A DNA stretch of 64,000 bases, taken from NCBI GenBank assembly GCA_018971045.1, contig JAGWVF010000004.1, forward strand, positions 8,535 through 72,534, given 5' to 3'. A program made the translations under genes and the position numbers. This document shows positions 1 through 41,575 of the stretch, piece by piece (within the stretch, counting starts at the first letter, position 1; every line of letters begins with the position of its first letter). The notes below the pieces were generated by a model. It searched no databases, was not told the origin of the DNA, and was given only the letters and a program-made list of their open reading frames with translations. This stretch comes from Patescibacteria group bacterium (GTDB taxonomy: Bacteria > Patescibacteriota > Minisyncoccia > Phycocordibacterales > Phycocordibacteraceae).

Positions 1-12
1 GGTAGAGTCATC

Positions 13-204
13 ATGAGCAAGCAAGACACGCCCGAACAGGGCATGGTCACGCTGTGCGGCGTCCAGGGCTGCTGCCCCACGGTCGACTTCACGGACCCCG
101 CGAAGGTGGTCCTGAAGGACGATTTCGGCGGCCAGGTGCAGCTCACGCCCGAGCAGTGGGCCGACCTGAAGGCCAAGTTCGCCGCAGCCCCCAACCAGGG
201 CTGA
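13..204 (+). CDS. Small Cys-containing hypothetical protein (63 aa; reading frame stays open to the left window edge, so it may be partial). Weak resemblance to DUF397/BldB-like small proteins.
   Basis: ORF-track protein has 3 Cys in LCGVQGCC; CPTVDF...VVLKDDFGG..LTPEQWADLKAKF loosely matches the DUF397 pattern CVEVA...VRDSK..GP.L.F...W.AF; GC3 is near 95%, far above the rest of the window. Confidence 0.35.
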   Translation: MSKQDTPEQGMVTLCGVQGCCPTVDFTDPAKVVLKDDFGGQVQLTPEQWADLKAKFAAAPNQG

Positions 205-236
205 CCTGATCGACATCGTGCACGATGCCGTTCCCG

Positions 237-272
237 GCCCCCAATTGCGCAAGTGATTGGGGGCTGTTCCTT
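237..272 (+). promoter_or_regulatory. Hairpin GCCCCCAAT-N10-ATTGGGGGC with a partly U-rich tail between the small Cys ORF and the rSAM gene (attenuator/terminator candidate)
   Basis: 9-bp perfect stem; followed by TGTTCCTTCACC, then the AGGAG RBS of the rSAM gene. Confidence 0.4.
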
Positions 273-296
273 CACCAAACCTAGAGGAGTTGCCCT

Positions 297-1628
297 ATGT
301 GGTCCCAATATCTTCGTGTAAAGGAAAGGGGTGGCGTGGTGGCGGTGTTCCACGAACTTCATCCTGATCCAATCTTCTGCTCTTCGGAGCAGTGGGAAAG
401 TCTTCAGGCCGGTGTCACTGAAGGCGCCGATGCGCTTATCAGCGATCTCAGGAGGCGCGACTTGCTGATCGAGAATCCCGAAGAAGATCATACGGAGTTT
501 CTCGACGTCGCGACAAAGCTTGAGCGCAAGCTCAATCAGCCGACGATTCTGTATCTGATGACCGCCCAAGGATGCAATCTCCGTTGCGGATATTGTCCCG
601 TGCCGGGGATTGCAAAACGGTACGGGGAGACACTCCTTACTGCAGAGGATGCCTTTGCGGGTATCGATTTATGGGAGGAGCATCTGCAAGAGGTATACGA
701 TCCGCTCCTGCAGTACTTTGTCATTTTCTATGGCGGCGAGCCACTGCTGAACAAAGCTGTAATTGAAGCCTCACTGGGTTATATCAAGAACAAGAAGTCG
801 ATTGGCGCATTGCCAACCAATCTCAACATCATGATCGCCACTAATGGGATCTTGGTTGACGACGAGATCATCGCCCTGTGTCAGGAGCACGCGGTGATGG
901 TTGCGGTTGGTCTTGATGGACCACAAGCACCGAATGACGCGTTGAAAGTTGATCAGTGTGGCGAAGGAACGTTCGATCGGATTGTTGCGACAATCCGTCG
1001 GCTCGTCCAAAGCAACATTAGGACGTTCGCGTCGGTGAGCATTACGCCCTTCAATATCGATCACATAGCGGAGTACGCTGGTTTCTTCAGTGAATTAGGA
1101 GTCGAGAAGTTCGGTTTTAATTTTCTGAAGGGTCGACTACTTCTTGAAGTGGTGGGTCGCGAAGGTCTTGATACCTACTACCATCAGGCGTCGCGCGGCA
1201 TCATTCAGAATTCCCGGCGACAGGGCGCACGCGGCTTCGAATACCAAATGGAGAAAAAGCAGACTGCCTTCGACAATGGAGATTTCTTTCCGGTCGATTG
1301 CACCTGCTATGGCAACCAGTTGGTTATCCAACCTGACGGGCAAATCTCAAATTGCCCGTTCACCAAGACGTGGCTCGGCCACGTGAGGAGTGTGGGTACC
1401 GACTTCCGAATCTGGAATCAGCCGATCGTGAGGAAGTGGAGGAAGAGGTTGCCGCTCTATCATCCTGGGGAGGCCAAGGCCGTTTGCGGTGGAGGGTGTG
1501 CCTGGGGTTCGCAAGAGCTCAAGGGAGATCCGCTCGCCGTAGACGATTCAAGTCGAATTTTCTCTGAAGAGGTGCTCGATGAACTCATCTGGTCGCGATA
1601 CGACAGGCTCAAGTCTGGGCAGACCTAA
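297..1628 (+). CDS. Radical SAM / SPASM-domain enzyme (peptide- or protein-modifying maturase candidate), with a ~90-aa N-terminal extension
   Basis: CNLRCGYC = Cx3Cx2C radical SAM cluster motif; FYGGEPLLN glycine-rich SAM motif; C-terminal SPASM-type Cys set CTCYGN...NCPF...AVCGGGCAWG; AGGAG Shine-Dalgarno 7 nt upstream of the ATG. Confidence 0.85.
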   Translation: MWSQYLRVKERGGVVAVFHELHPDPIFCSSEQWESLQAGVTEGADALISDLRRRDLLIENPEEDHTEFLDVATKLERKLNQPTILYLMTAQGCNLRCGYCPVPGIAKRYGETLLTAEDAFAGIDLWEEHLQEVYDPLLQYFVIFYGGEPLLNKAVIEASLGYIKNKKSIGALPTNLNIMIATNGILVDDEIIALCQEHAVMVAVGLDGPQAPNDALKVDQCGEGTFDRIVATIRRLVQSNIRTFASVSITPFNIDHIAEYAGFFSELGVEKFGFNFLKGRLLLEVVGREGLDTYYHQASRGIIQNSRRQGARGFEYQMEKKQTAFDNGDFFPVDCTCYGNQLVIQPDGQISNCPFTKTWLGHVRSVGTDFRIWNQPIVRKWRKRLPLYHPGEAKAVCGGGCAWGSQELKGDPLAVDDSSRIFSEEVLDELIWSRYDRLKSGQT

Positions 1629-2430
1629 GTTCGGGATTATCGGAGGTTCGGGAATGTGCTCATTCCCTGAACTGAAGTTGATCTCGAGGATCAGGCCCGA
1701 GACGAAGTACGGTTCACCATCCGACGATATCTTGATTTGCGAGTACGGTGGCCAGTCGGTGGCATTTCTTCCCAGGCATGGGTCGAAGCACACGCTGGCG
1801 CCGCACAAGGTTCCCTACAAGGCAAATCTCGCCGCTCTTCGGGAGGTGGGGGTCGAGTATGTAATCGGCACTTGCATTGCCGGGAGTCTCAAGAAAGACA
1901 TTGCTCCCGGCAGTCATGTGCTACTCGACCAATTCGTCAACCTTACCTGGGGGCGCGACGACTCGGTTGAGGCGGATGGGTCATTCGTTCATTTACCGAT
2001 GGGGGAACCCTACTGCAGTCATGTGCGTCGAGCGATGCTCGAGGTCGCGGGCGTGTCGGGTATCGCGATTGTTCCGCAGGGAACCGTTGCGGTGATACAG
2101 GGACCTCGATTTTCAACCGCTGCCGAAAGTCGTTGGCTCTCAGGCAACGGTTGGGACGTGGTGAACATGACACAGTATCCAGAGTGCTACTTCGCTCGCG
2201 AGCTCGGACTCTGTTACGCGGCGATCGGTGCCGTGACGGATTACGATGTGGGACTTCAAGAAACCCTCGTGATAGACCCGCAACGAATGGACGCAATCCT
2301 CGAAGTCTTCAAAGGTAATGTCCAAACGACGAAGAATCTGCTCCTTGCATTCATTGAACGCGCAATTCCCAAACTCTCCTGCAAATGCGCGTCGGTTGTG
2401 CTCAGGGCCTACTACGAGAGTTCTTTATGA
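1579..2430 (+). CDS. mtnP: S-methyl-5'-thioadenosine / 5'-deoxyadenosine phosphorylase (PNP_UDP_1 family)
   Basis: N-terminal KFGIIGGSG; PHKVPYKANLAALREVGVEYVIGTCIAGSL typical of MTA phosphorylase; 50-nt overlap with the upstream rSAM gene; AAGAGG RBS. Confidence 0.8.
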   Translation: MNSSGRDTTGSSLGRPKFGIIGGSGMCSFPELKLISRIRPETKYGSPSDDILICEYGGQSVAFLPRHGSKHTLAPHKVPYKANLAALREVGVEYVIGTCIAGSLKKDIAPGSHVLLDQFVNLTWGRDDSVEADGSFVHLPMGEPYCSHVRRAMLEVAGVSGIAIVPQGTVAVIQGPRFSTAAESRWLSGNGWDVVNMTQYPECYFARELGLCYAAIGAVTDYDVGLQETLVIDPQRMDAILEVFKGNVQTTKNLLLAFIERAIPKLSCKCASVVLRAYYESSL

Positions 2431-2475
2431 ACCCCCCGTCGGAGAACGATCTTCTCCGACGGGGGTTCTCGTTTT
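2431..2475 (+). terminator. Rho-independent terminator (14-bp GC-rich stem, then TTCTCGTTTT)
   Basis: CCCCCGTCGGAGAA-cgatc-TTCTCCGACGGGGG followed by a U-rich tract immediately after the mtnP stop. Confidence 0.7.
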
Positions 2476-2567
2476 ATGCTATTGCTACTATGATAATTTT
2501 ATGGCATTCTGATCTCGGAGCAAAGAACATTTGCATTGTGACTTAATGTAACTCTCTCGAAAGGAAT

Positions 2568-4250
2568 ATGAGCATGTTAAAGGCTACAAAGCTTCAGAAA
2601 AGTTACGGGTCGTTACCCGTGCTTTCTGACGTCTCCTTTTCCCTCGAGCGAGGACAGAAGGTGGCGTTAGTCGGCAACAACGGAACAGGTAAGACAACCT
2701 TGCTCAAAATGATTGCCGGGCTTGAGCACCCGGATGGCGGCACGCTAGAGATAGTTCAGGATGCCTGCGTCGGCTATCTCCCTCAAGACACCAATCTTGT
2801 CGAGGACGTATCCGTCTCGGTGTATCTAAGGAGCATCTCTGGCATTGCCTCTCTTGAGAAGGAGATCGAGGAACTTTCGAAGGACCTCGACGATCCTCGA
2901 AAGGCGAGGCGGTACAGCGAAGTGCACGAGCAGTACGAGCATCTCAATGGGTACGCTTTCGATCGCCGCATGGAAGTGATGTTGGCGGGTTTCGGACTCG
3001 ACCCTATTGGCATTGACCACAAACTGTCCAGCCTCAGTAGTGGGCAGAAAAGTAAGGTAGCGCTGGTGGGCATTTTGCTCAAAGGTGTCGACCTGCTGTT
3101 GCTAGATGAGCCGACAAATAACCTCGACTTGCCTGCGCTTGTTTGGCTTGAGGATTACCTTAAGAAGAGCGAGGCGGCCTGTATCGTCGTCTCTCACGAC
3201 CGTCGATTTCTCGATCGGGTGGTGAAAAAGGTCTTCGAGCTGGACTGGCATACCCATTCTCTCACGATCACGGGAGGTACCTACAGCGACTATCTCGAAA
3301 TGGTTGCGAAGCGGATCGCTCGACAGAAGGAAGACTATCGCATTCAACAAGAAGAGATTGAAAGGCTGAGCGATAAAGCACGCGACAAGCGTGCCGATGC
3401 GGCTCGCGGCGCTCGCTGGATGGGGAAGGATAACGACAAATTCCTCAGAGGCTTCAAGCGCGATCAGGCAGGGAAGTCTGCACGCGTTGCCAAGGCAATC
3501 GATAAGAGGATCGAACAAATGGACAAGGTCGAAAGACCAATCGAACGAGATCCATTTGAGATCCCCCTTGAGGCTGAAGTGAGTTCCGGGGGACTTCATG
3601 TGAGTGCTATCGACGTTGTCGCGGGGTATCGTGATGGCTTCCAGATCGGCCCTGTGTCGTTTGAGCTGCGGTACGGAGATAGAATCGGCATCATGGGGCT
3701 TAACGGCAGTGGGAAATCAACTCTGCTGAAAACCCTCACCGGTCAAATGGAACCACTGAGCGGCAGGATTGAAATTGGCTCCGGCATCAGAATTGGCAAC
3801 ATGATGCAAGAACATGAGACCCTGCCTCGGGAATGTACGTTGCTCGAGTTCCTTACCGAACGAGAGCACCTGACTCGTCAGGATTCCTATGCCAAGCTCG
3901 CCAGATTTGGTTTCGACGAAAGGCAAGTAACTCTGCCTATCGGCACTCTGAGTCCTGGGGGTCGAGCACGGCTCCTCCTCGCTCTGTTCTCGGCGCAGTC
4001 GGTCAACATGCTAGTACTAGATGAGCCGACAAATCACCTCGACCTCGAGGCGCTCGAAGCCCTGGAAGAGATGATGAGGACCTATCGAGGTACAGTAGTG
4101 CTCGTCTCGCACGATCGCTACTTCCTCGAAAAGGCTTCACTTGGTGTTGTGTACGTTTTGTCCGAAGGGGTACTCACCAGGATCCCTGACTACAAGGCGT
4201 ACGAGGCCTCAGCGGAGGAGCGAGCACGAAAGCTACTGAAACTGCTGTAA
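2568..4250 (+). CDS. ABC-F family ATPase (two tandem ABC domains, no TM domain; EttA/Uup/ARE-like)
   Basis: Two Walker A motifs (GNNGTGKTT, GLNGSGKST); two ABC signatures (LSSGQKSKVAL, LSPGGRARLLLA); two Walker B motifs (LLLLDEPTNNLD, LVLDEPTNHLD); inter-domain linker; AAGGAA RBS. Confidence 0.85.
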   Translation: MSMLKATKLQKSYGSLPVLSDVSFSLERGQKVALVGNNGTGKTTLLKMIAGLEHPDGGTLEIVQDACVGYLPQDTNLVEDVSVSVYLRSISGIASLEKEIEELSKDLDDPRKARRYSEVHEQYEHLNGYAFDRRMEVMLAGFGLDPIGIDHKLSSLSSGQKSKVALVGILLKGVDLLLLDEPTNNLDLPALVWLEDYLKKSEAACIVVSHDRRFLDRVVKKVFELDWHTHSLTITGGTYSDYLEMVAKRIARQKEDYRIQQEEIERLSDKARDKRADAARGARWMGKDNDKFLRGFKRDQAGKSARVAKAIDKRIEQMDKVERPIERDPFEIPLEAEVSSGGLHVSAIDVVAGYRDGFQIGPVSFELRYGDRIGIMGLNGSGKSTLLKTLTGQMEPLSGRIEIGSGIRIGNMMQEHETLPRECTLLEFLTEREHLTRQDSYAKLARFGFDERQVTLPIGTLSPGGRARLLLALFSAQSVNMLVLDEPTNHLDLEALEALEEMMRTYRGTVVLVSHDRYFLEKASLGVVYVLSEGVLTRIPDYKAYEASAEERARKLLKLL

Positions 4251-4258
4251 AGCACTTG

Positions 4259-4295
4259 GAACCCGGGCGGGCGCAGCTTGCCCCGGGTTCCTTTC
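4259..4295 (+). terminator. Hairpin AACCCGGG...CCCGGGTT after the ABC-F stop
   Basis: 8-bp inverted repeat with a GC-rich loop, followed by CCTTTCATAAT. Confidence 0.45.
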
Positions 4296-4307
4296 ATAAT
4301 AATCCAC

Positions 4308-4946
4308 ATGATCAAATCAGAACGAATCGCGAAGAAAATAAATGAACAAATATCCGTATGGGGGAATGACCATGCGAAGTTAATTATTGCTATTGAGGGG
4401 TATGCCGGCTCGGGGAAGACGACGGTTGCTGAATATCTCGCAAAAGGGAATACCAACGTGGCTGTCTTGCACCTCGATGATTTCATTAAGCCCTGGGAAG
4501 ATCGGAAGCGACTGATGAACAATGTTGGTGACAAATCAAAAGTATTTGAATACGAATGGTATCGCTATGACGATCTGGAGAAAGTACTCAAACAATTCAA
4601 GGTGAAGAAGCGGGGTGTGATGAAATACAAGGCATACGACTTTAATAAAAATGACTTTGGTCCGGCGAAGTCTCTTGACCTATCAAAAAAGATTTTGGTA
4701 ATTGAGGGTATCTTTCTCCTTCACCAAGAACACGCTATAAGCGCGCTTTGGGATAAAAAAGTGTATCTCGATATTAATTTTGCAAAGGCCGACCGAATGA
4801 GAATTGCAAGAGAAAAGAAGAAGTGGGGCAAGGCGTATCTCCCAGAAGCTCATATTGATAACTGGACCAAATACTTCAAGATTGCCTATCGAAGATATGT
4901 AAAAGAGCACAAGCCGCAGCGCATGTGTGGCTTGAGGTTTGAGTAA
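4308..4946 (+). CDS. Uridine kinase / PRK-family P-loop nucleoside kinase-like protein (low-GC gene)
   Basis: IAIEGYAGSGKTT Walker A; LHLDDF; KILVIEGIFLL; ...LDINFAKADRMRIAREKKKWGK parallels the uridine kinase architecture; about 42% GC versus about 60% core; the longer ORF starts at 4278. Confidence 0.55.
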   Translation: MIKSERIAKKINEQISVWGNDHAKLIIAIEGYAGSGKTTVAEYLAKGNTNVAVLHLDDFIKPWEDRKRLMNNVGDKSKVFEYEWYRYDDLEKVLKQFKVKKRGVMKYKAYDFNKNDFGPAKSLDLSKKILVIEGIFLLHQEHAISALWDKKVYLDINFAKADRMRIAREKKKWGKAYLPEAHIDNWTKYFKIAYRRYVKEHKPQRMCGLRFE

Positions 4947-7095: not shown

Positions 7096-9489
7096 ATGCC
7101 CTACGAACATCGCGAAATCGAGCGCGCCGCCCAAGCGAAGTGGGCGGAGCTCAATCTCTATGAGACCGATCTCGCCGATTCTTCGAAGGAACCGTATTAT
7201 CTCCTCGCTGAGTTTCCGTATCCGTCGGGCGATCTCCATATCGGCCATTGGTATGCGTTCGCGGTGACGGATATCTACGCGCGCATGCTGAGGCAGCGCG
7301 GGAAGAACGTGCTTTTTCCCATCGGTTTTGACGCGTTCGGACTTCCCGCCGAGAATGCGGCGATCAAGAACGGCGTCGACCCGAAGGAATGGACGCTGAA
7401 GAATATCGAGCGGATGCGCCGGCAGCTCCAGAGCATGGGCGCCTCATTCGACTGGCCAAAGGAGGTTGTCACGTGCGATCCGGACTACTACCGCTGGACG
7501 CAGTGGCTTTTCGCGAGACTCTTTGAGCACGGGCTCGCCGAGCGCAGGGAAGCGGCAGTGAAGTGGTGCCCAAAGGATCAGACGGTGCTTGCGAACGAAC
7601 AGGTGATCGACGGTTGCTGTGAACGCTGTGGTACGCCGGTGGAGGAGAAACGGCTTACCCAATGGTTCCTGAAGATTACCCGGTATGCCGAACGGCTGCT
7701 TTCGGGACTCGAAACTCTGCCGTGGCGCGAAGAGATCAAGGAGGCGCAACGCGCATGGATCGGCAAGAGCGAGGGCGCGGCCTTAACATTCAACGTCCCA
7801 CAAACGGGGAAAGGGATCGAAGTCTTCACGACGCGCCCCGACACGCTCTTCGGAGCGACCTATCTCGTTCTCGCGCCCGAACATCCTCTGGTCGCGGAGT
7901 TCCTGCCGATGCTCGCGAATGCGGAAACCGTTCAAGCGTATGTTGACGCGACGTCGAAGAAAACCGAACGCGAACGCGGCGAGAATAAAGAGAAGACCGG
8001 CGTGGAGCTGAAGGGGGTGCGGGCGATTAACCCGGGGACGAACGAAGAGATTCCGATCTATATCGCCGATTACGCCCTCGCGTCCTACGGCACCGGCGCG
8101 GTGATGGCGGTTCCCGCCCACGACGAGCGCGATGGAGAATTCGCCGCGTTAATGGGCCTACCGGCTCGCGAAGTCGTCGAGCGCGGCGATAAACCGTTGC
8201 CGTACACCGGATCCGGCGCGCTCATAAACTCGGGAGATTTCTCCGGCCGCAACAGCGAGGAAGCAAAATGGGATATCGCCGCTTCGGTGGGCGGCAAAAA
8301 GACGACCAACTACCGCATCCGCGATTGGCTGATCAGCCGCCAGCGCTATTGGGGCTGTCCGATCCCGATCGTGTATGGTCCGGATGGTAAGCCGCATGCG
8401 ATTCCCGCCGAGCATTTGCCGTGGATGCTCCCGACTGATGTCGATTTCAAGCCGACCGGCCGCGCTCCCCTGGCTTCATCAGAAGAGCTCAAGGAGCGCG
8501 TAATAAGGATTTTCGGCGAAGGATGGACCCCGGAGTACGATACCTTCGACACCTTTATGGACTCGTCGTGGTACTTTCTCCGGTATCTCGATCCGAAGGA
8601 CGCGCACGATTTCTCCGAAGCCGCGCTTATGAAAAAGTGGATGCCGGTGAATCGCTACTCCGGCGGAAGCGAACACACGACGATGCATCTCCTGTATGCG
8701 CGTTTTTTTATGAAAGCGCTTTATGATCTCGCGCTGGTGCCGGTTGACGAACCCTTCGCCGAGCGTTTTAATCGCGGGCTCATTATGGGTCCCGACGGCC
8801 AGAAAATGAGCAAATCGAAGGGGAATGTCGTGAATCCTGACGAATTCGTTCAGCGGTACGGCGCCGACGCGGTGCGGCTTTACCTCGCGTTTATTGGTCC
8901 CTACAATGAGCCGGGAAGTTATCCCTGGAATCTCGACGGCGTCGCCTCGATGCGCAAGTTTCTTGAGCGTATCGAGCGTCTCGTCGACGTCGAGAAGAAA
9001 TCTACGGACATCGTAAGTCCGTATATTGGGCAGGTGGTGGCTAAGACGAGCAAGAAAATCGCTGATGACGGCGATCGGTTTAAATTTAATACCGGCGTCG
9101 CGGCGCTTATGTCGCTCCTGAATGAACTCGAGGCATTGCCCGAAACGCCGACAGAAGCACTCGCGCAGTTTGTGATCATGCTGGCGCCCTTCGCTCCTCA
9201 TCTCGCCGATCATTTATGGGAGAGGCTCGGCGGAGAGGGAAGCGTGCACCAGCAGGCGTGGCCTTCGACCGAAGTCGCGGCGGCGACCGAACATGAAGTC
9301 GTAGTGCAGGTCAACGGCAAGCGGCGCGGCTCGATTACTCTCCCCGCGGGTACCCCTGAAGAAGAGGCGATCGCGGCGGCGCGGGCGCTCTCTCCGGTTG
9401 CCGCAGCACTAGGCGGGAAAGATCCCTCGAGAGTCATCTATTTGCCCGACCGTCTCGTAAATCTGGTCACTGCCGAGCGAGCGAGTTGA
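7096..9489 (+). CDS. leuS: Leucyl-tRNA synthetase
   Basis: HIGH motif PYPSGDLHIGHWYAF; KMSKS motif QKMSKSKGNVV; editing and anticodon-binding regions recognisable. Confidence 0.95.
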   Translation: MPYEHREIERAAQAKWAELNLYETDLADSSKEPYYLLAEFPYPSGDLHIGHWYAFAVTDIYARMLRQRGKNVLFPIGFDAFGLPAENAAIKNGVDPKEWTLKNIERMRRQLQSMGASFDWPKEVVTCDPDYYRWTQWLFARLFEHGLAERREAAVKWCPKDQTVLANEQVIDGCCERCGTPVEEKRLTQWFLKITRYAERLLSGLETLPWREEIKEAQRAWIGKSEGAALTFNVPQTGKGIEVFTTRPDTLFGATYLVLAPEHPLVAEFLPMLANAETVQAYVDATSKKTERERGENKEKTGVELKGVRAINPGTNEEIPIYIADYALASYGTGAVMAVPAHDERDGEFAALMGLPAREVVERGDKPLPYTGSGALINSGDFSGRNSEEAKWDIAASVGGKKTTNYRIRDWLISRQRYWGCPIPIVYGPDGKPHAIPAEHLPWMLPTDVDFKPTGRAPLASSEELKERVIRIFGEGWTPEYDTFDTFMDSSWYFLRYLDPKDAHDFSEAALMKKWMPVNRYSGGSEHTTMHLLYARFFMKALYDLALVPVDEPFAERFNRGLIMGPDGQKMSKSKGNVVNPDEFVQRYGADAVRLYLAFIGPYNEPGSYPWNLDGVASMRKFLERIERLVDVEKKSTDIVSPYIGQVVAKTSKKIADDGDRFKFNTGVAALMSLLNELEALPETPTEALAQFVIMLAPFAPHLADHLWERLGGEGSVHQQAWPSTEVAAATEHEVVVQVNGKRRGSITLPAGTPEEEAIAAARALSPVAAALGGKDPSRVIYLPDRLVNLVTAERAS

Positions 9490-19759: not shown

Positions 19760-19846
19760 GCGTCGGTGGTAGAGTGGTCAATTACAACAGGCTGTAAACC
19801 TGTCGGGCATAGCCCTACGTTGGTTCGAATCCAACCCGGCGCACCA
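19760..19846 (+). tRNA. tRNA-Tyr (anticodon GUA), class II long variable arm, CCA encoded
   Basis: Hand-folded cloverleaf: acceptor GCGTCGG/CCGGCGC; anticodon loop CTGTAAA; 16-nt variable arm; T-arm GTTGG-TTCGAAT-CCAAC; lies immediately downstream of tyrS. Confidence 0.8.
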
Positions 19847-41503: not shown

Positions 41504-41575
41504 GGCCTCATCGTCTAACGGTTAGGACAGATCCCTCTCACGGATCAAATCGGGGTTCGATTCCCCGTGAGGTCA
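41504..41575 (+). tRNA. tRNA-Glu (anticodon CUC)
   Basis: Hand-folded cloverleaf: acceptor GGCCTCA/TGAGGTC; D-stem GTCT/GGAC; anticodon stem GATCC/GGATC with loop CTCTCAC; T-arm CGGGG-TTCGATT-CCCCG; extended -10 TGtTATAAAT about 7 nt upstream. Confidence 0.75.

Follow-up and report, generated by a model that had tools for sequence, protein, structure and literature searches.

A conserved three-cysteine mini-protein, a radical SAM enzyme and an MTAP-type phosphorylase form a putative protein-maturation cassette in Patescibacteria

The window analysed here, a 64,000-nt stretch of contig JAGWVF010000004.1 (positions 8,535 to 72,534) from a Patescibacteria group bacterium, opens with a three-gene operon (13–2475, + strand) that runs from a small three-cysteine protein through a hairpin, a radical S-adenosylmethionine (SAM) enzyme and a phosphorylase of the 5'-methylthioadenosine phosphorylase (MTAP) type to a transcription terminator. 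The first open reading frame (ORF; 13–204, 63 aa), characterized by its translation, its homologues and an AlphaFold2 (AF2) model, starts with MSKQDT, contains LCGVQGCCPTVDF and encodes the putative substrate of the radical SAM enzyme. A 92-nt spacer carrying two hairpins (208–233 and 235–266) separates it from the 443-aa ORF of the radical SAM enzyme (297–1628), which was identified from Pfam and NCBIfam matches, a cysteine census, an AF2 model and Foldseek/PDB comparisons. The third gene (1579–2430, 283 aa), assigned from Pfam PNP_UDP_1, NCBIfam and PDB matches and from synteny, is followed by a strong intrinsic terminator (2433–2475) made of a 14-bp stem and then TTCTCGTTTT; on an identical contig, L001, the terminator scan placed it at 8169–8201, which corresponds to 2433–2465 of the window. 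An earlier note on positions 1–1628 had described the small ORF with its three clustered cysteines (LCGVQGCC), the intergenic stem-loop and the radical SAM gene, all of which were confirmed; by ending the unit at 1628, it missed the phosphorylase gene and the terminator, as well as a recurrent ABC-F neighbour.

Frame 1 contains no stop codon between the window start and the ATG of the small ORF, and the earlier note had allowed for this ORF being merely the end of a gene that starts further upstream. Searches for identical proteins retrieved the same locus from six independent assemblies (L001–L006). On L001, a 21-kb contig, about 375 bp of A+T-rich non-coding DNA separate the small gene from a divergently oriented gene of 192 aa. 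Because the identical contigs carry this intergenic stretch, the small gene is stand-alone and complete, and the possibility that it is the 3' tail of a longer gene is ruled out. An AGG-type ribosome-binding site lies 9–13 nt 5' of its start codon. The G+C content jumps at the window start (0.67 versus 0.53); a chimeric assembly or a recent transfer is an unlikely cause, since the junction is repeated in six independent contigs and the G+C content at third codon positions (GC3) of the small gene is high throughout the family.

The association of the three genes was assessed by scanning GTDB, each species being represented by a single genome, with aligned radical SAM homologues as query. The 77 loci obtained were split by six-frame hidden Markov model (HMM) searches into 51 whose radical SAM enzyme is 35–73% identical (246–767 bits) and 26 in which identity does not exceed 33% (at most 154 bits). 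In the first group, the small gene lies directly upstream of the radical SAM gene and on the same strand in 48 of the 51 loci, the exceptions being L050, where the contig is cut inside the radical SAM gene, L053, where that gene is truncated, and L040, where the small gene is found 2 kb away on the other strand. Likewise, an MTAP-type gene directly follows the radical SAM gene in 47 of the 51 loci, the exceptions being three contig ends and L053. Neither the small gene nor the MTAP-like gene was found near any of the 26 less related radical SAM genes. The trio therefore behaves as a three-gene unit, with the small gene upstream and the MTAP-like gene downstream.

The same trio is present on metagenome contigs L088/L091, L093 and L095. 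Its flanks vary widely from locus to locus, and it extends beyond the Patescibacteria: L030 and L035 are actinobacterial loci of 64–66% G+C, flanked by hemY, hemQ, msrB, a copper-type P-type ATPase gene and hemL-like genes. Homologues carry the names Pacebacteria, Zambryskibacteria, Yonathbacteria, Uhrbacteria, Kerfeldbacteria and Minisyncoccales, which, along with the genes flanking the cassette, assign the window to Patescibacteria. Viral contigs yielded no family member, the best match being 25% identical, and PADLOC gave no specific match to a defence system, only generic ones (pVip at 32 bits on the radical SAM core, ABC ATPase models, and VakA at 20 bits on the P-loop). At L053 (317–1312, on a contig labelled Anaerolinea), the radical SAM copy is reduced to residues 3–303 and no MTAP gene follows, so that this locus is probably a decaying cassette. 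On L095, the radical SAM gene is called at only 333 aa and may be frameshifted.

The three cysteines of the small protein (C15, C20 and C21) all lie within LCGVQGCC. Its 77 homologues (54–103 aa, 51–94% identity) share the signature L-CGVQGCCP ... DDFGG-V-LT, with L14, C15, C20, C21, P22, D36, D37, G39 and G40 invariant, and when the comparison is extended to linked members whose radical SAM enzyme is only 35% identical, L-CG(V)(Q)GCCP and DD-GG-V-LT stay constant. AF2 predicts four beta strands and a C-terminal helix with a predicted local distance difference test (pLDDT) score of 84. The whole 50-aa domain is kept, a degree of conservation far above that usual for the cores of peptides that are made on ribosomes and modified after translation (RiPPs). 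On the strength of this model and of the alignment, the small protein is a highly conserved, presumably folded mini-protein rather than a leader–core peptide. Pfam and NCBIfam searches with it returned nothing significant.

The family is large: a profile search of 1.8 billion representatives gave 523 clusters (at 50% identity) of similar proteins of 48–90 aa, with the common pattern LC...CCP(T)V(E) ... DDFGG-V-LT. Some members have no radical SAM neighbour. In L084 the gene order is YchF, small protein, aldolase; in L085 it is small protein, P-loop kinase, an unassigned gene, NUDIX. The small gene lies near an Nramp transporter in L086 (1856–5653), sits after a glutaredoxin-like ORF in L089, adjoins a YHS metal-binding protein in L092 (141–519) and is followed in L094 (4001–7889) by a CsoR-like repressor, an HMA protein and a P-type ATPase. 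Judging from this small sample of unlinked members, the cysteine triad possibly binds metal. Two further proteins depart from the single-domain form: P0198 (116 aa) is a tandem duplicate of the small domain whose second copy is devoid of the cysteine triad, and P0280, a 5780-aa protein, shows nine partial matches to the small-protein profile.

The small protein is plausibly a distant relative of DUF397 (PF04149). DUF397 was published as a fold of four strands and a helix, with a cysteine motif (CxE) in strand 2 and RDS closing strand 3 (PMC7159879). It has the same size and predicted topology as the small protein, namely four strands and a terminal helix; a cysteine stands at the start of strand 2 in both, and the (K/R)DD of the small protein resembles the RDS at the end of strand 3. 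DUF397 was the top Pfam match for four of five actinobacterial members of the small-protein family, albeit below threshold (12.7–15.1 bits versus a cut-off of 24), and one family member is named DUF397 by NCBI. By hhalign, the small protein and a Pfam-positive DUF397 protein, whose gene is located 1.2 kb from a cassette, aligned in register with an E-value of 0.0017 but a probability of only 15%, and the small protein of the window itself did not match the DUF397 Pfam model. DUF397 proteins differ from the small protein in that they lack the cysteine triad and the GG motif, and they are paired with helix-turn-helix genes (XRE regulators), with no known radical SAM pairing. A Pfam-positive DUF397 gene (2534–2755, 73 aa, KCCCVAV...LRDTK...) is found 1.2 kb upstream of the cassette on L095, a Patescibacteria contig, yet DUF397 is described as restricted to actinobacteria.

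The second gene encodes a member of the radical SAM superfamily: Pfam Radical_SAM (PF04055) matches at 63.5 bits (cut-off 29.5), the CX3CX2C motif (C93/C97/C100) is present in 46 of 47 family members, and the core of the AF2 model matches radical SAM structures. All 25 NCBIfam matches listed are peptide or protein maturases, each far under its cut-off. The best is the FibroRumin maturase (TIGR04136, 121 bits versus 400), which aligns residues 4–408 onto positions 3–425 of the model, followed by QhpD (TIGR03906, 99.6 bits versus 453, residues 44–413), the nif11 maturase (TIGR04064, 88.7 versus 518.7), PapB (NF047865, 88.5 versus 340) and CcpM (83.7), with the SCIFF maturase (TIGR03974, 70.8 versus 425) and anSME (TIGR03942, 58.6 versus 349) lower down. 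Because every listed match is a maturase and none of the curated equivalogs (TIGR04136, TIGR03906, TIGR04064, NF047865, TIGR03974, TIGR03942) reaches its cut-off, the enzyme belongs to an uncurated family inside the maturase clade. An anSME- or heme-type radical SAM enzyme, the outcome that the earlier note had named as a possible refutation, is ruled out by the scores and by the N-terminal domain.

This N-terminal extension, of about 85 aa (the earlier note had given about 90), precedes the radical SAM core. In the AF2 model (pLDDT 89.9), it consists of strands at 6–11, 14–19 and 26–29 and helices at 30–37, 45–53 and 61–79; residues 1–80, with their three predicted strands and three predicted helices, appear to form a domain resembling a RiPP recognition element (RRE). 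The model as a whole superimposes nearly full-length (456–473 columns) on RRE-containing RiPP maturases, with CteB at E 1.2e-19 (456 columns) and TigE at 1e-16, and Foldseek retrieved anSME, SkfB, ChlB and SuiB as further fold matches. By sequence, too, CteB ranks first among PDB entries (1.4e-18), although the two proteins are only 17–18% identical.

By contrast, the C-terminal domain is not the full SPASM domain claimed by the earlier note. The SPASM seven-cysteine motif (CX9-15GX4C ... CX2CX5CX3C ... C) is incomplete in the window enzyme, which has CX(10-12)GX4C (C335/C337...G348...C353) and C397/C401 and is devoid of the first two cysteines of CX2CX5CX3C and of the last cysteine; Pfam SPASM accordingly scores 18.1 bits, under its 21.5 cut-off. 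A census of the domain in 47 full-length family members found C335, C353 and C401 in all 47, C337 in 44 and C397 in 17, with no further conserved C-terminal cysteine. CX2CX5CX3C and the final cysteine are kept in only three members (L030, L035 and L057), all of which lack C337. As judged by alignment with anSME, the retained cysteines correspond to those of the first auxiliary cluster, and the second cluster has probably been lost from the window enzyme. C335, C337, C353 and C401 should suffice for one cluster, in a Twitch-like arrangement, so that the window enzyme presumably has a single auxiliary cluster, as opposed to two in L030, L035 and L057. The contrast between these three and the other 44 looks like a two-to-one auxiliary-cluster switch within one orthologous family.

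The third gene starts at ATG 1579, with GAGGTG 4–5 nt upstream, and shares 50 nt with the radical SAM gene, whose stop lies at 1628. In the automatic annotation of an identical contig it begins at 1654, which would drop the phosphate loop GIIGGSG; the alignments with HMMs and PDB entries set in at residue 16 of the longer protein. PNP_UDP_1 (PF01048) matches at 126.7 bits (cut-off 25.1), the NCBIfam MTAP models fall just under their cut-offs (NF005876, 260.9 versus 306; TIGR01694, 234.8 versus 274.85), and solved MTAPs match at 1e-52 to 1e-44 (Sulfolobus MTAPII 1e-52, human MTAP 3.5e-49). The canonical motifs GIIGGSG, RHG and TDYD are present. 5'-Deoxyadenosine (5'-dA) inhibits radical SAM enzymes and must be removed (PMC8102628; PMC6079011), and the predicted phosphorylase may serve to clear it and to recover adenine for the radical SAM enzyme to which it is coupled.

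The spacer between the first two genes folds into two hairpins with a minimum free energy of –37 kcal/mol (z –3.2; none of 200 shuffled sequences was as good). The main hairpin (235–266, + strand) is G+C-rich, has a 14-bp stem and is followed by a T-rich stretch. About 20 of the 21 spacers that could be parsed cleanly have a hairpin in this position, with stems of 9–16 bp, z values of –2.4 to –5.8 and T runs after many of them. The RNAalifold consensus helix comprises 11 pairs, and compensatory changes were seen in 5 of these (for instance U-A in 10 sequences versus C-G in 8). A simple terminator scan of the window did not call this hairpin; it is likely a partial terminator or an mRNA-stabilizing element that governs how much small protein is made relative to enzyme. 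The first, smaller hairpin (208–233, + strand, core CATCGTGCACGATG) was seen by folding and recurs in many related spacers. Its sequence (GACATCGTGCACGATGCC) is nearly constant in many loci whose main hairpins diverge, and it may be a recognition site for a protein or an RNase, beyond mere structure.

Codon usage points in the same direction. GC3 is 0.92 in the small gene, compared to about 0.61 in the radical SAM, MTAP and ABC-F genes (297–4250), and it exceeds that of the radical SAM gene in 45 of 47 loci, by 0.20 on average, which suggests selection for high expression or selection at the RNA level. Taken with the terminator after the MTAP gene, the conserved hairpin and the GC3 of the small gene fit a three-gene transcription unit that yields an abundant small protein and scarcer enzymes.

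Beyond the terminator, the next gene on the same strand (2568–4250) encodes an ABC-F ATPase of the 'ribosomal protection-like' class and forms a separate transcription unit. It matches NCBIfam NF000355 at 430.1 bits (cut-off 380), as do its counterparts on L088 (9124–10758, 411.9 bits) and L030 (4033–5697, – strand, 385.2 bits); the L030 protein scores highest, with 455 bits, against the TlrC/CarA/OleB/SrmB producer family. An ABC-F gene adjoins the cassette in 37 of 52 loci and does so in three arrangements: downstream in members of the candidate phyla radiation (CPR), upstream and divergent in L030 and L035, and upstream on the same strand in L029. It is missing from about seven loci with enough flanking sequence (L015, L027, L037, L040, L042, L047 and L048). 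A functional link between this gene and the cassette is possible. The link is uncertain for the following gene (4278–4946, + strand), which encodes a P-loop kinase of the uridine-kinase/PRK family (NCBIfam udk, 52.8 bits, far under the cut-off of 220): about 17 loci have such a kinase in the vicinity of the cassette. In L015 and L042 its gene comes immediately after the MTAP gene, and in L039 and L040 it lies on the opposite strand. Other nucleotide enzymes accompany single cassettes, namely NUDIX and CYTH proteins in L042 and a nucleotidyltransferase in L047. The remaining surroundings in the window are housekeeping genes (ATP synthase subunits, YchF, LeuRS, infA and ribosomal proteins) and a DUF5671 gene; Rfam matched only two tRNA genes (19760–19843 and 41504–41575).

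We propose that the radical SAM enzyme modifies the mini-protein in or near its CGVQGCCP loop inside the cell and that the MTAP-like enzyme removes the resulting 5'-dA, a reading to which we give about an even chance. The small gene would be transcribed and translated in excess, owing to its strong codon bias and to a hairpin that passes only some transcripts on to the enzyme genes. The radical SAM enzyme would dock the 63-aa protein through its RRE-like N-terminal domain. The cluster bound by CX3CX2C would then cleave SAM reductively, and the 5'-deoxyadenosyl radical would take a hydrogen in or near the invariant loop. Assisted by the single auxiliary [4Fe-4S] cluster that is left to it (C335/C337/C353/C401), the enzyme would then form what, by analogy with its closest characterized relatives, is most likely a Cys-derived thioether cross-link; this chemistry is the least secure part of the scheme. 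The translationally coupled phosphorylase would split the inhibitory 5'-dA into adenine and 5-deoxyribose-1-phosphate, which would keep the radical SAM enzyme turning over and save purine in organisms of minimal metabolism. Because no protease or exporter is conserved in the neighbourhood of the related loci, the modified mini-protein would stay intracellular.

The proposal thus retains the candidate peptide or protein modification cassette of the earlier note, which is borne out by the adjacency of the small cysteine-containing gene and by the predominance of maturase families among the best-scoring models, including peptide maturases ranking above anSME and near full-length superposition on CteB and TigE. 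It keeps the RiPP layout of precursor, hairpin and maturase seen by that note only in part: the gene order stands, and the small ORF, conserved and predicted to be folded, does not look like a RiPP precursor. Such precursors combine a leader or follower with a variable core, are released by a protease and are usually exported; the small protein has no such division, and neither a protease nor a transporter is conserved around the cassette.

Several observations weigh against the proposal itself. The small protein shows no visible leader/core split, its N-terminal tail being short and variable. Its two obvious cross-link partners, the aspartate of CX3D (C21–D25) and W49, are not kept in distant linked members, many of which have a non-acidic residue at position 25 (for example TLHRL, QAVIK, TVKIS and TVSFF). 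A PapB-like CX3D cross-link, to which the window protein and its close relatives would lend themselves, was rejected for this reason, as was a tryptophan cross-link at W49. The three cysteines, DD and GG are equally conserved in the members without a radical SAM neighbour (L084, L085, L086, L089, L092 and L094), which points to a role of these residues that is independent of the radical SAM enzyme. A Pfam search of residues 1–81 of the enzyme alone found no PqqD/RRE or other domain, so that the RRE assignment rests on structure and on full-length HMM alignments. Finally, an obligatory coupling to an MTAP, persisting in Actinobacteria, is unusual for RiPP loci, and the proposal does not account for the adjacency of the ABC-F gene.

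Some of these points would be accounted for if the small protein were an accessory of the radical SAM enzyme rather than its substrate, loading its clusters as a metal or Fe-S carrier with three cysteine ligands or reducing them as an electron donor. The true substrate would then have to be sought elsewhere, be it some other protein, a nucleoside or nucleotide, or a component of the ribosome. The persistence of the triad and DD in unlinked members, the metal-related genes beside several of these (those of L094, L092 and L086 described above), the copper-type P-type ATPase adjoining the actinobacterial cassette, and a predicted fold devoid of leader/core layout would all suit such a role. We nonetheless consider it unlikely: substrates in this radical SAM clade are normally encoded next door, the enzyme has an RRE-like docking domain, the attenuator hairpin and the codon bias are what one would expect of a substrate that outnumbers its enzyme, and no other conserved substrate-like gene was found in the cassette neighbourhoods. 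Moreover, we know of no ferredoxin or rubredoxin motif that consists of three cysteines with an adjacent CC pair. The ABC-F gene raises another alternative, in which the cassette makes a ribosome-directed agent, either the modified mini-protein or a fragment of it, and the ABC-F protein acts as a self-immunity or reset factor, as in antibiotic producers. The above-cut-off NF000355 scores in the window, L088 and L030, the producer-family match of the last, and an adjacency that recurs in three different arrangements speak for it; we judge it improbable, given that the ABC-F gene is a separate transcription unit here and is absent from about seven loci, that NF000355 covers a broad range of proteins and ABC-F members commonly serve as housekeeping factors in translation, that neither exporter nor protease is conserved, and that antimicrobial peptides are not conserved to the very high degree seen in the small protein.

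The phosphorylase could also be a tailoring enzyme. According to this very unlikely scheme, the radical SAM enzyme puts a 5'-deoxyadenosyl group on a cysteine sulfur, and adenine is then removed, leaving a thio-linked ribose phosphate. Cys-S-5'-deoxyadenosine would be a structural analogue of methylthioadenosine, and the radical SAM–MTAP pairing is strict, translationally coupled and maintained across phyla. There are precedents in futalosine biosynthesis, where radical SAM adenosylation is followed by a nucleosidase, and in the C5'-S bond formation of HydE. No sequence feature demands such a scheme, however: the MTAP-like protein looks canonical and the nearest radical SAM relatives use the 5'-dA radical for hydrogen abstraction. 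Scavenging of 5'-dA is a simpler account of the pairing (PMC8102628). We see just as slight a chance for a combined version, in which the pair adenosylates and then de-adenylates a cysteine of the mini-protein to give a thio-linked (phospho)ribosyl cysteine and the product acts with the ABC-F protein on the ribosome. Hardly credible, lastly, is the notion that the gene order is merely the inherited synteny of unrelated genes in streamlined genomes. The cassette does stand amid housekeeping genes in the window, but the trio is kept down to 35% radical SAM identity and in unrelated flanks, including actinobacterial contigs of high G+C content, the genes overlap and the hairpin is conserved, so that this explanation is already largely refuted: the trio reflects a functional linkage.

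Modification of the mini-protein by the radical SAM enzyme, if correct, would make the cassette a radical SAM system for protein maturation in which the substrate is folded and perhaps distantly related to DUF397, the auxiliary domain is reduced and an MTAP is an obligatory partner. We found no paper describing it, and no curated family covers it. In Patescibacteria (CPR), whose genomes are tiny and poor in accessory pathways, the retention of a costly Fe-S system across many lineages, along with its presence on actinobacterial contigs, suggests that it likely matters to them. The cassette departs from textbook RiPP loci in that its putative substrate is a conserved, predicted folded mini-protein from a large uncharacterized family, DUF397 itself being without known function, and in that a by-product phosphorylase is hard-wired to the radical SAM enzyme. 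The coexistence, in one family, of members with a full SPASM domain and members that seem to have lost the second cluster offers a natural experiment on the role of the second auxiliary cluster. Solving the modification would give a function to several hundred hypothetical small proteins and would put to the test whether the recurrent ABC-F neighbour reflects a connection with translation.

Among known systems, the phosphorylase is closest to MTAP/MtnP, with which it shares fold and motifs, including a C-terminal CXC in common with Sulfolobus MTAPII; unlike in the MTAP/MtnP salvage pathway, it is tied to a single radical SAM gene by overlap and has no linked isomerase or aldolase. The FibroRumin maturase matches the radical SAM enzyme almost over its full length, N-terminal domain included, yet belongs to a different family (121 bits versus 400) and has a different precursor. 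anSME likewise acts on a cysteine within a protein, and its core and first auxiliary-cluster cysteines align with those of the present enzyme; C20-C21-P22 faintly recalls its CxPxR motif, of which the arginine is absent from the small protein. Unlike the window enzyme, with its RRE-like domain and probable single auxiliary cluster, it has no RRE and two auxiliary clusters, and no sulfatase is found near the cassette. In QhpD/QhpC, a radical SAM enzyme acts on the small gamma subunit of quinohemoprotein amine dehydrogenase, where it links Cys to Asp/Glu by thioethers, and the substrate remains a functional protein that is not secreted. The cassette protein also has invariant cysteines and aspartates; on the other hand, there are no dehydrogenase subunits or QhpE-type protease near the cassette, and the Cys-Asp spacing is not conserved in the small-protein family. 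In the SCIFF systems (ScfB/CteB/Tte1186; ranthipeptide-type thioether), as apparently here, a radical SAM enzyme with an N-terminal RRE (an RRE-like domain in our case) and a C-terminal auxiliary-cluster domain follows directly after the gene of a small, cysteine-rich and unusually conserved substrate, with no obvious export machinery. The SCIFF substrate has 6 cysteines in a 45-aa peptide instead of 3 in a predicted folded domain of 63 aa; the window enzyme, unlike CteB, is devoid of the second set of auxiliary-cluster cysteines, and the MTAP is obligatory in the cassette. By analogy, then, the cassette would work most like SCIFF/CteB and QhpD/QhpC, which share with it a conserved cysteine-containing substrate and the lack of export machinery.

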